From assembly GCA_018303325.1 (NCBI GenBank), contig JAGVYH010000004.1, positions 1-60,272 on the forward strand: 60,272 nucleotides of DNA, read 5' to 3'. Of the stretch, positions 5,130-21,601 are shown piece after piece (within the stretch, counting starts at the first letter, position 1; the number at the start of each line of letters is the position of its first letter). The notes under the pieces are model-generated. The model searched no databases and was not told where the DNA came from. It saw only the letters and a list, made by a program, of their open reading frames with translations. Made by a program: the position numbers and the translations under genes. The DNA is from Candidatus Woesearchaeota archaeon (GTDB lineage: Archaea > Nanobdellota > Nanobdellia > Woesearchaeales > DSVV01).

Positions 5130-5657
5130 GATTTAGGAAACTTAAACCAACCTCATCTCAAAAAAGCTGCTGAGATAAAATTCAACATAAAACTTTCTGA
5201 CGTTGATAAGAATTCTCACTTAACTATGGATGGTGATGAATTAAAAACATTAGACATTACTTTCAAAGACGACAATTCAGAGCTCGTCATGGAGAACCCT
5301 TTAGCGCATGACAAACCACAGTATAAATATGCTGATGAGTTTAAAGATACTGATGGTGATGGATTAACAGATAATATGGAATTGAACAATAACCTTTTTC
5401 GTACAAATTAATCACGTTTGTATATACAAAAGTGCAAAATAATGTTCGATTATTTTGTACTTTTAGTATATCCTACTGATGCAAAAGAATACAATACTTA
5501 TCCAGAAATAGGTTATGAAGATGATTACAAGTTCGTAGAGTATTTTCTAAGCAATCCTGCGATATTTAATGAAGTGAAAACATTAGGCATAGAAGATGAT
5601 CCTTTGCAGGACAGTGATGGTTTCCATTTTCTAATAATAACTCTTAGTGAAAAATAG
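5130..5657 (+). pseudogene. Fragmentary paralog of the 6258..8408 gene, interrupted by a family-1 element
   Basis: 5130-5395 matches ~6672-6935 (KYADEFKDTDGDGLTDNMELNNNL) and 5467-5620 matches ~6958-7129. No signal peptide. Confidence 0.8.
5396..5470. mobile_element. Family-1 palindromic doublet (left-truncated) inserted at TATA
   Basis: Ends TTTTAG-TATA-TCCTACTGA, while the intact paralog reads ATTATGA-TATA-TCCTACTGA. Confidence 0.75.
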
Positions 5658-11627: not shown

Positions 11628-11720
11628 TATACTAAAAGTGCAAAATAATCGAACATTATTTTGCACTTTTGTATATACAAAAGTGATTAATTTGTTCGAA
11701 AATTAATCACTTTTAGTATA
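11628..11720. mobile_element. Complete family-1 inverted palindromic doublet
   Basis: Two ~48-nt hairpins in opposite orientation, TATA at both ends, flanked by 36-bp direct repeats (34/36 identical). Confidence 0.8.
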
Positions 11721-15736: not shown

Positions 15737-15833
15737 ATATAGGCACGGACATTAATTATTGAGCATAAGATTCCGTGCCTATATGTTGCAAACACACTAA
15801 TTTTAGTGATAAGACTTTATGTGTTTGCAACAT
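15737..15833. repeat. Family-2 hairpin doublet
   Basis: ATATAGGCACGGA/TCCGTGCCTATAT and ATGTTGCAAACAC/GTGTTTGCAACAT stems with related AT-rich loops. Confidence 0.7.
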
Positions 15834-19312: not shown

Positions 19313-19360
19313 TATACTAAAAGCACAAAATAATCGAACATTATTTTGTGCTTTTGTATA
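19313..19360. repeat. Family-1 single palindromic unit
   Basis: TATACTAAAAGCACAAAATAAT-CGAAC-ATTATTTTGTGCTTTTGTATA, 48 nt. Confidence 0.8.
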
Positions 19361-20073: not shown

Positions 20074-20165
20074 AGTCAACTAATCTAATTTTTAGGATAA
20101 TTTTTATTGGTTGACTATTTATAGTAACTGACCTAAAATTTAGATTAATCATGTCAGTTACTATA
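20071..20165. repeat. Family-2 hairpin doublet
   Basis: ATAGTCAACTAAT/ATTGGTTGACTAT and TATAGTAACTGAC/GTCAGTTACTATA stems; loops begin CTAA(T/A)(T/A)TTT. Confidence 0.7.
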
Positions 20166-20271: not shown

Positions 20272-20291
20272 TTCATACATATATGTATGAA
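20272..20291 (+). promoter_or_regulatory. Perfect 20-bp palindrome, putative operator
   Basis: TTCATACATATATGTATGAA just downstream of TTTAAATA. Confidence 0.55.
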
Positions 20292-20304
20292 AAGGTGTAT
20301 AAAT

Positions 20305-20981
20305 ATGTATGAAAATAAACCAAAAAATCCGTTTAACACTAAAATAGATGAACTAGAACTATTTATACAATTAATTGCAGATTTAGATGAGGATATTGAG
20401 CTTTTTGCAATGGGTGGAACAGCAATGGTGATGAAAAATATTAAAGAAGTAACCAAAGACATTGATTTTTTAACAACATCTGATTATACTAACATAAATA
20501 AATTGTTTAAACTTGCCGGTCTGAAAGAAGAAAGCAATTCAAGATTATGCAACATTTGGCGGATGAATAAGACAAGAATTGACATTTTTTATGGCGCATT
20601 TATTTTAGGCACTGCTCTGCCGCAAGATTGGAAAGAGTTATCAGAGCATATATAGTAAGTGACGTAAATTTTTATACATATAGTGTCACTTACTATATTT
20701 GTCGGACATAACACTTTGTATAAATATTTATGTCCGACATTATAAGAACAGTAGGTAAAGTAAAATTGTACATATTAAACTGGTATGATATTATAATAAC
20801 GAAGATTGCAAGGTCAGAAGAAAGAGACATAGAGGATATTTTAAAAATACTTAAAACACAGAACATTGACTTTAAAAAACTAAAAAACAGGTATTACAAT
20901 GTTGCTCCCGTATCATTGATTGCTGATTTTAAGATGAAATTTAAATATTTAGAGTATAAAAGATATTTTGATAAAAGATGA
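20305..20981 (+). pseudogene. DUF6036-like nucleotidyltransferase split by a 92-bp insertion
   Basis: MGGTAM..TKDIDF in the 5' part and DIIITKIARSEERDIED in the 3' part. Removing 20653-20744 restores the frame ...ELSEHIRTVGKV... Confidence 0.85.
20649..20744. mobile_element. Family-2 hairpin doublet inserted with TATA duplication
   Basis: GAGCA-TATA-[ATAGTAAGTGAC/GTCACTTACTAT + TGTCGGACATAA/TTATGTCCGACA]-TATA-AGAACA. Confidence 0.85.
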
Positions 20982-21601
20982 TATCTGGAAAATTGATAAA
21001 AGAATTGGAAAAAGAAGGATTTATATTAGAATTTCCTAGTTATGAATTCAATGATGAAAAGATTATAGATATACTTAAGGAAGGAAATTTAAGATTAAAT
21101 CTTGCAATTCCTTTATTGTTGCGTTATGATTTTGATTATAATAATATCATAAAAAAATTAAAACAAAAAAAATTGAAAGATGAGTTCAATAAACTCATTC
21201 TGATTTCAAACAAAATATTCATATCTGAACATATAAATAATGCTCTGCTTAAGAATATAATTAGAAAAAATAAGATTACGGCCAAATTCAGTAAAAGTGA
21301 ATTAATGTATTATTATAACTCATTTAAAGAGTTCCAAAAAAACAAAGAGAAGAAAAAAGAAGAAGTTTTCGAAGAAAATCTTATTATGAGAGGAAAACTA
21401 AACACAAATAAAGCGTTATCAGAGATATTTTCTCCGGGGAAACAGAGGATTATGGATAAAATTTTTAATCACGAGCCATTAAGTAATACAGAGCTAAAGT
21501 ATTATTATCGATCAATTAAACCATTAATTTTGTCAATATTAAATGAGAATCTTAGGAAATATGTTAGAATAATTGAATCTACTAAAAAATACACTAAATA
21601 A
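20978..21601 (+). CDS. Hypothetical partner of the nucleotidyltransferase (putative antitoxin)
   Basis: ATGA overlap with the upstream gene; helical protein. Confidence 0.65.
   Translation: MISGKLIKELEKEGFILEFPSYEFNDEKIIDILKEGNLRLNLAIPLLLRYDFDYNNIIKKLKQKKLKDEFNKLILISNKIFISEHINNALLKNIIRKNKITAKFSKSELMYYYNSFKEFQKNKEKKKEEVFEENLIMRGKLNTNKALSEIFSPGKQRIMDKIFNHEPLSNTELKYYYRSIKPLILSILNENLRKYVRIIESTKKYTK

Follow-up and report, generated by a model that had tools for sequence, protein, structure and literature searches.

A 90-bp two-hairpin element inserted at a TA dinucleotide in a nucleotidyltransferase gene of a Woesearchaeota-type archaeon, probably a MITE of the IS630/Tc1-mariner kind

In a draft genome of the Woesearchaeota (G000; 1.97 Mb in 78 contigs, 91.7% complete), a nucleotidyltransferase gene is interrupted by a short palindromic stretch of DNA, which raises the questions of how that stretch came to lie there, and what kind of enzyme moved it. 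The locus belongs to a stretch of 60,272 nt, analysed at its full length and referred to here as the window. An original prediction, made from the letters of the window, read the interruption as a REPIN- or MITE-like mobile unit of about 90 bp, with a TA or TATA target and no cognate transposase nearby. The sequence at 20640-20755 is as that prediction described it.

The two ORFs on either side of the insert (20287-20655 and 20730-20981) lie in different frames, and both correspond to parts of one Pfam family, DUF6036: the N-terminal half matches family positions 6-62 (E 0.0087, below the cut-off) and the C-terminal half positions 88-161 (E 3.1e-10). An empty site was sought in orthologous loci by DNA search of 40 relatives, and was present in two of them, G009 and G036, where the gene is uninterrupted and encodes proteins of 198 and 197 aa, respectively, each matching DUF6036 in one stretch. 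The window is exactly 92 bp longer than both. The net insertion relative to the empty site is therefore 92 bp (20653-20744, or equally 20651-20742), and scripted deletion of 20653-20744 yields GAG CAT ATA AGA ACA within a frame of 201 codons that aligns to both orthologues with no gap at the junction, where G036 reads GAG CAT ATA AGG GAT. The ancestral gene was therefore whole, and the insert a later addition; neither orthologue is natively split at this position. The predicted split of the gene by 92 bp, and the EHIRT-type junction expected on removal of the insert, have thus been borne out, whereas the accompanying claim that a copy of TATA is duplicated has not, as only TA is repeated.

The element itself provides the new ends of the broken gene. 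The stop codon of the N-terminal fragment (TAG, 20653-20655) comes from the element, as does an in-frame ATG (20730) in its second hairpin, from which the C-terminal fragment can be read as an 83-codon ORF, 20730-20981, beginning MSDIIRTVGK. Neither fragment contains a further stop; the insertion may therefore be recent, or the gene may persist in two parts. The gene downstream (20978-21601) is a conserved neighbour of the nucleotidyltransferase gene in both relatives. Together, the DUF6036 gene and this neighbour of 206-211 aa form a conserved pair in three genomes (window 20287-21601; L033 1501-2732; L034 659-1869), the start of the neighbour overlapping the upstream stop in the window and in G036, and the two genes abutting in G009. 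The 207-aa neighbour has no family match in Pfam, NCBIfam or PADLOC, and PADLOC gave no match for the nucleotidyltransferase and its neighbour.

The insert is made of two adjacent hairpins, termed H1 and H2, as had been proposed. Folded as single-stranded DNA, the stretch reaches -21.2 kcal/mol, compared with -6.75 +/- 2.33 kcal/mol for 200 shuffles (z -6.2), 0 of which fold as well. Each hairpin occupies 47 bp, bounding TA dinucleotides counted. The inverted homology that had been noticed between the two loops, where TAAATTTTTATACA (20665-20678) differs from the reverse complement of 20717-20730 at 1 of 14 bases, has proved to be part of larger imperfect terminal inverted repeats: the left end and the reverse complement of the right end are identical at 24 of 34 positions without gaps, so that the two halves act as imperfect terminal inverted repeats. 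The left repeat is formed by the outer arm and loop of H1, and the right repeat by the reverse complement of H2 (TATAATGTCGGACATAAATA...). H1 and H2 are therefore diverged inverted copies of one another, their outward halves serving as terminal inverted repeats of ~28 bp that start TAGT-N4-GAC-N-TAAAT. The terminal 13 bases recur inverted inside each unit, giving the two hairpins. Compensatory changes affect 11 of the 25 stem pairs in the 35-copy set, where 93.1% of cells are paired; for the H1 stem the figures are 6 of 13 pairs and 98.9%. This pairing was matched by 0 of 500 shuffles, and no slid register came close. The TATAG head, too, forms part of the stem, opposite CTATA, with 96-100% pairing over pairs 1-5 of helix 1. 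The element is without coding capacity, the only ORFs being those that run in from the flanks. Since the span conserved across the family is 94 bp and the net gain 92 bp, the element proper is 90 bp (TAGT...ATTA) between two TAs (Table 1).

Table 1. Positions of the interrupted gene, the element and related hairpins (window coordinates unless a contig or locus is named)
Feature	Position	Strand	Details
Nucleotidyltransferase (DUF6036), N-terminal fragment	20287-20655	+	122 codons, ends ...ELSEHI*; aligns to residues 1-121 of the G009/G036 orthologues
Conserved family span, 94 bp	20651-20744	+	TA + 90-bp element + TA; 30-copy and 35-copy alignments
Unit H1	20651-20697	+	Outer arm TATAGTAAGTGAC, 21-nt loop, inner arm GTCACTTACTATA
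Unit H2, inverted homologue of H1	20698-20744	+	Stem TGTCGGACAT/ATGTCCGACA
Nucleotidyltransferase (DUF6036), C-terminal fragment	20745-20981	+	78 codons plus stop
Downstream gene, 207 aa	20978-21601	+	Start overlaps stop of C-terminal fragment; context, outside the element
Solitary H1-type hairpin	20120-20165	+	TATAGTAACTGAC...GTCAGTTACTATA; H1 profile E 3.6e-8; intergenic, 485 bp upstream of the insertion
Hairpins with TATAGTAAGTGAC stem in contigs of other lineages	L058 200-400; L059 4770-4970; L042 4850-5050; L053 6560-6692		
Nested or chained modules	G000:C53:3180-3370; C24:39740-39960; C68:8530-8800; C25:107010-107440		

The same element recurs throughout the genome. A 106-bp query gave 104 matches in G000, palindromic matches being counted on both strands, of which 30 cover at least 80 of the 106 query bases; alignment of these 30 copies delimits the conserved 94 bp, TATAG...ATTATA, beyond which the flanks are unrelated. 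Six copies are 97-99% identical to that in the window. A family profile recovers 35 full-length copies, so that the hairpin doublets for which a genome scan had been proposed do exist, although they are bounded by TA rather than TATA. Intergenic positions, free of ORFs of 100 aa or more, account for 32 of the 35. Of the other three, one is contained in an ORF (C42), and two, the window copy and C1:1454, each adjoin an ORF that terminates within the element. This intergenic bias fits the expectation for a mobile element under purifying selection. No orientation bias relative to neighbouring genes is apparent in tandem contexts (13 co-oriented, 9 opposed). Several G000 contigs end in or near copies (C45:5-98, C24:41527-41620, C61:98-195, C34:168-214), and the family is thus one cause of the fragmented assembly. 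With an empty site in orthologues, a multi-copy family and no transposase among the families tested (see below), the description of the insert as a non-autonomous mobile unit of ~90 bp is upheld.

That removal of 92 nt restores the frame, and that the element supplies both a stop and a start codon, so that a split gene is conceivable, would also suit an insert that never moved, be it an archaeal intron, part of a natively split gene, or an assembly chimera. This is extremely improbable, given the intact orthologues and the 35 full copies, 32 of them clear of ORFs. Moreover, the flanks are unpaired in both minimum-energy and centroid folds, with no bulge-helix-bulge across the junctions, and in Rfam no family reached its gathering score, the only returns being sub-threshold microRNA-hairpin look-alikes. 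Nor does the insert look like an assembly artefact, a possibility raised alongside the original prediction. The left gene-element junction occurs in Logan contigs of three runs (X1, X4 and X10) and the right junction in those of two (X1 and X4), each with 0 differing letters; the junction sequences thus recur in independent runs, in contigs extending 27 and 29 letters into the element, which is below the 31-letter bridging rule. Neither a contig joining across the insert nor an empty allele was found in X1, X4, X10 and X14, of which X10 and X14 leave parts of the stretch uncovered, and in contigs that drop rare variants. Summed word depth over the element is up to ~110 times that of the flanks in X1, a value that is not a copy number.

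Filled and empty sites also define the target. Three other filled sites could be compared with four empty paralogous sites in G000, and all of the empty sites consist of flank, TA and flank; with the orthologue comparison, this gives five filled/empty comparisons, each showing only one TA where the element is absent. A TATA context is dispensable, as CTAA and GTAA stand at two of the empty sites. The insertion target is TA, not TATA, and of the two targets originally proposed it is the shorter that has survived: the left flank of the window copy reads TATA by chance, TA alone being common to the family or duplicated. Across the sequences examined, there are 52 distinct flank pairs, and the corresponding copies start with TA in 46 cases and end with TA in 50, with A at position -3 in 39. 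Orthologous comparison of G000 with G001, a genome of the same genus, yielded no clean empty sites, the intergenic sequence having diverged too far and being crowded with other modules.

A small subfamily departs from this pattern. Six of the 52 copies start with TG (G000:C12:43652, C36:7474, C62:34778, C52:31039, C70:10899 and C25:96873), reading TGTAG, often with CTACA in the inner arm, where a C pairs with that G. The subfamily is found at two or more sites, and its empty forms (C30:5043, C55:81102) read TA. Simple target duplication does not predict these copies, and the outermost left dinucleotide seems either to move along with the element, or to be repaired to match the inner arm once the element is in place.

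A link to a known class of mover comes from the termini. Within the same order, DDE_3 genes are present in 35 of 301 sampled genomes, and 10 of 20 fetched loci contain elements of 1007-1062 bp, both ends of which read TAGT-N4-GAC-A-WAA-RTA. One of these, of 1062 bp (G116:C95; locus L132 1427-2488), encodes HTH and DDE_3 domains, and ends in TA followed by TAGT-N4-GAC-ATAA..., with the outer TA at both ends, as in the inserted element. The termini of the latter, TA followed by TAGT-N4-GAC-N-TAAAT, align ungapped to the ends of these ~1.0-kb IS630-family (HTH + DDE_3) insertion sequences from other genomes of the order. When 12 ends of the MITE-like family (six genomes) were aligned ungapped with 14 IS ends (seven genomes), T3, A4, G11, A12, C13, A16 and A17 were invariant in 26 of 26 ends, these columns being taken from alignments that include the MITE ends. 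The two ends in the window share a mean of 12.8 and 13.0 of 20 terminal bases with the 14 IS ends, compared with 6.95 +/- 1.58 for 33,411 random TA-starting genomic 20-mers, of which fractions of only 0.0004 and 0.0003 reach the observed values.

The profile results count against this link. A whole-genome nhmmer search with a profile of IS ends only gave 0 matches at E<=0.01 and six at E<=10, the same number as the reversed control, and none of the six falls on H1 or H2. Scored with a 30-nt position weight matrix, the two ends are negative, at -4.4 and -1.3 bits, values that lie in the top 0.13% and 0.05% of genome positions. At the position of the outer TA of the inserted element, nine of the ten insertion sequences have variable bases, and the element thus carries an additional TA at each end relative to most related insertion sequences. 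Two genomes, G039 and G051, hold both two-hairpin doublets and IS630-family elements. In G000, two solitary look-alikes of IS630-type ends (C27:5098-5123, TAGTTAAGGACATAAATAA...; C75:24637-24662, TAGTTGGCGACAATAGTAA...) were not significant (E 0.18 and 0.28), and could be relics of a lost parent element.

The explanation that best fits this locus, with a probability of about 70%, is a MITE of the IS630/Tc1-mariner type that is mobilised in trans. On this view, a DDE transposase of the IS630 family would act in trans: after binding to both outer ends it would excise the element and then insert it into a TA dinucleotide, leaving TA on either side. In the present case, the element has landed in the TA of CAT-ATA-AGA in the DUF6036 gene, where its own TAG ends the N-terminal part, and its ATG allows the C-terminal part to be read. 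We infer that the mover is of IS630 type and works by cut-and-paste, with the hairpins as by-products or add-ons, rather than as the recognition signal. Of the REPIN/MITE likeness originally put forward, the MITE half is retained, as the terminal inverted repeats resemble IS630-family ends, whereas the REPIN half is not, as the Y1 genes examined lack H1 and H2. Further observations sit uneasily with this interpretation: no IS630-type transposase was found in G000 or G001, yet near-identical copies suggest recent movement, and a transposase acting on double-stranded DNA would not call for covariation of the stems as strong as that seen (11 of 25 pairs).

The search for the enzyme extended from the window, which holds no cognate transposase, as originally noted, to the whole genome, with the same result for the families tested. 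There were 0 matches in G000 to PF13358 (DDE_3), and 0 to NF033545, for which G001 gave only weak HTH-region matches to an IS481-like gene. PF01359 (mariner) also had 0 matches, but its control gave no signal in any genome, so this profile is uninformative. The ORFs of ten IS630-family elements, used as tblastn queries, had no match in G000, the examined G001 loci or the metagenome loci. PF07282 (TnpB), PF00239 (resolvase), PF01548 (IS110) and PF00665 (rve) each had 0 matches in G000, the PF00665 matches of G001 and G041 being IS481-like. The only transposase genes found in G000, with a single profile match each, are a Y1 IS200-like gene (C5:827-1303) and an IS1182-like DDE gene (C21:1495-2847; locus L065). 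The latter, the one PF01609 match, encodes 450 aa and was rejected as a candidate, as it has its own 20-bp inverted repeats, unrelated to H1/H2. No autonomous copy, with H1 and H2 separated by a gene, was found in G000, the G001 loci or 30 metagenome contigs, and the widest separation, ~450 bp, is filled by other hairpin modules. As G000 and G001 are drafts, 91.7% and 76% complete, absence of the transposase is not proven by these results; it is weak evidence, because repeats and IS copies are often left unassembled.

The proposed scan for HUH and Tc1/mariner-type genes thus returned one positive class, Y1, which brings with it an alternative: a REPIN- or IS200/IS605-like element, whose hairpins are recognised in single-stranded DNA by a Y1 (HUH) enzyme that inserts beside TA without duplication. 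The co-varying stems of the end hairpins (11 of 25 pairs compensatory, 93.1% of cells paired) and the doublet of inverted units, which resembles a REPIN, both point this way, as does the TG of the subfamily, which is inherited at the left end, pairs in the stem, and has empty sites that read TA, as insertion beside TA would have it. Furthermore, each tested element-bearing genome (G000, where the gene is that on C5, G001 and G041) has one PF01797 (Y1) gene. However, the Y1 genes of these genomes and of G009 are only 27-33% identical to each other, lie in unrelated contexts, and have no H1/H2-like hairpin beside them. The nearest copy to the Y1 gene of G000 is 1.2 kb downstream, beyond another ORF, and in G001 and G041 the Y1 gene has GC-rich hairpins of its own on either side, with TTTA loops. 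In addition, G009, despite its Y1 gene, yields a single partial H2-like match, while the Micrarchaeota genome G042 has H1 hairpins but no Y1 match. The ends of IS200/IS605 elements are in direct, not inverted, orientation, unlike the inverted homologues H1 and H2, and the ends seen here resemble IS630-family inverted repeats. IS200/IS605-derived (PATE-like) elements insert 3' of a fixed 4-5-nt target with no duplication and carry direct end hairpins; this type was set aside, as only TA is fixed in the flanks, the units are inverted, and TnpB was not found in G000. Movement by a Y1 enzyme is accordingly considered unlikely.

Similarity to the REP/REPIN-RAYT systems of bacteria, as one account presents them (PMC3733652), extends to short inverted palindromic units that are abundant, mostly extragenic, and occasionally in genes. 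In that account, REP palindromes have an unpaired conserved tag, GTAG or CGTC, alongside, whereas the TATAG head of the present element is paired (PMC3733652). A REPIN-RAYT identity is unsupported on this point, and because H1/H2 do not flank the Y1 genes of G000, G001, G009 and G041; further contrasts are the TA target and an end motif in common with DDE-type insertion sequences. Two adjacent hairpins need not, therefore, imply an HUH-type element, because here they are inverted repeats folded back on themselves.

A mover of an untested or undescribed class, for example on an unassembled replicon, a virus or a host cell, with the IS630 likeness convergent or ancestral, was judged similarly doubtful. 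It would account for the lack of a cognate enzyme in G000 or G001 among nine profiles, and for the same 13-bp H1 stem, with different loops, in Micrarchaeota-, Methanosarcinales- and Peribacteria-binned contigs. Absence from 92%- and 76%-complete drafts is, however, weak evidence; the TA target, inverted repeats and end motif are all expected of IS630/Tc1-mariner, and a search of viral contigs for the hairpin gave 0 matches. The six copies that are 97-99% identical, and one freshly broken gene, allow the family to be read as still moving, and there is a slim chance that it does so in a DPANN-type archaeon without a transposase of its own, by an enzyme from outside the chromosome or one of an undescribed, hairpin-recognising class. 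The outside source would be another cell, host or neighbour, a plasmid missing from the assembly, or a virus. If true, the exact 13-bp H1 stem in contigs of other lineages would mark spread within one groundwater community.

Prokaryotic MITEs derived from IS630/Tc1-mariner elements include the Correia elements of Neisseria, RUP of Streptococcus pneumoniae, and SM1 of Sulfolobus. The element of the window, read as a MITE, resembles these in being ~100 bp, non-coding, multi-copy and mostly intergenic, with terminal inverted repeats and IS630-family-like ends, and in having TA on both sides, compared with a single TA when empty. It differs in that each of its repeats is folded on itself, giving two hairpins with different stems, rather than one long one, in having no internal segment, and in that a matching transposase is not assembled in the host genome. 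The IS630-family insertion sequences of the order resemble it in their termini (for example, that of G116:C95), but are autonomous, 1.0 kb long, without fold-back of the terminal 13 bases, and were not found in G000. An archaeal palindromic repeat within a gene also recalls the MJRE repeats of Methanocaldococcus jannaschii, reportedly described by Suyama et al. in 2005, some of which are said to lie inside genes with the reading frame kept open. The element of the window, by contrast, breaks the reading frame.

MITEs, archaeal ones included, are well known, so the archaeal setting is not new, and the family adds a further MITE. In one census (PMC11602168), MITEEc1_IS630 is a named MITE, and a Woesearchaea genome is among the most MITE-dense of the archaea, at 105 MITEs per Mb. 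A literature search found no description of the present family, although the supplementary MITE sequences of PMC11602168 may already contain it. The current understanding of transposition is unchanged by an element of this ordinary kind and its textbook-style insertion. Its value lies in providing a clean, documented transposition event in an uncultured, groundwater Woesearchaeota-type genome, with filled and empty sites, target, ends and likely parent IS family. It can also guide the annotation of the many hairpin repeats by which such assemblies are fragmented, and supplies a marker with which populations can be followed.

Beyond the genome of origin, G001 carries about two dozen copies, the 13-mer giving 46 arm matches there, compared with 0 for the reversed control. 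Among 401 genomes of the order, the 19-nt left end (at most one mismatch) was found in 12, and the reversed control in six, once each. On inspection, two-hairpin doublets are present in G039 (4), G143 (2), G211, G365 and G051, and in diverged form in G138 and G111; four single matches had no hairpin and were dismissed as noise. Between genomes, the H2 stems differ by paired changes. The exact TATAGTAAGTGAC stem, with other loops, appears one to three times in the Micrarchaeota-, Methanosarcinales- and Peribacteria-binned contigs, which may reflect transfer between lineages or mis-binning, and in the Micrarchaeota-binned contig the hairpin is chained to a TATAGTGGGCGACAC hairpin.

The units do not occur as doublets alone, being found also in solitary form, or joined with other partner units. 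Other hairpin modules are inserted at TA in the loops of the units, such as a TTTCAGATTAAATG...AAATTTTCAA module that lies inside H1/H2 loops with TA on both sides, and in three copies H1 and H2 are separated by a 50-bp pair of GC-richer hairpins; it follows that the modules nest and chain at TA. A separate hairpin family, TATAC-TAAAAGTG...CACTTTTA-GTATA, occurs singly and doubled, with TATA-like ends, at 11634-11714, 5428-5464, 19319-19355 and 116-151 of the window, and four queries from it gave 56, 41, 22 and 15 copies in G000 at a query cover of at least 80%. A further two-hairpin doublet, with three copies, lies at 15737-15833 (TATAGGCACGGAC... plus GTTGCAAACACA...); its first unit is an H1-type variant that is elsewhere paired with a CGTGGACTTT-type second unit.
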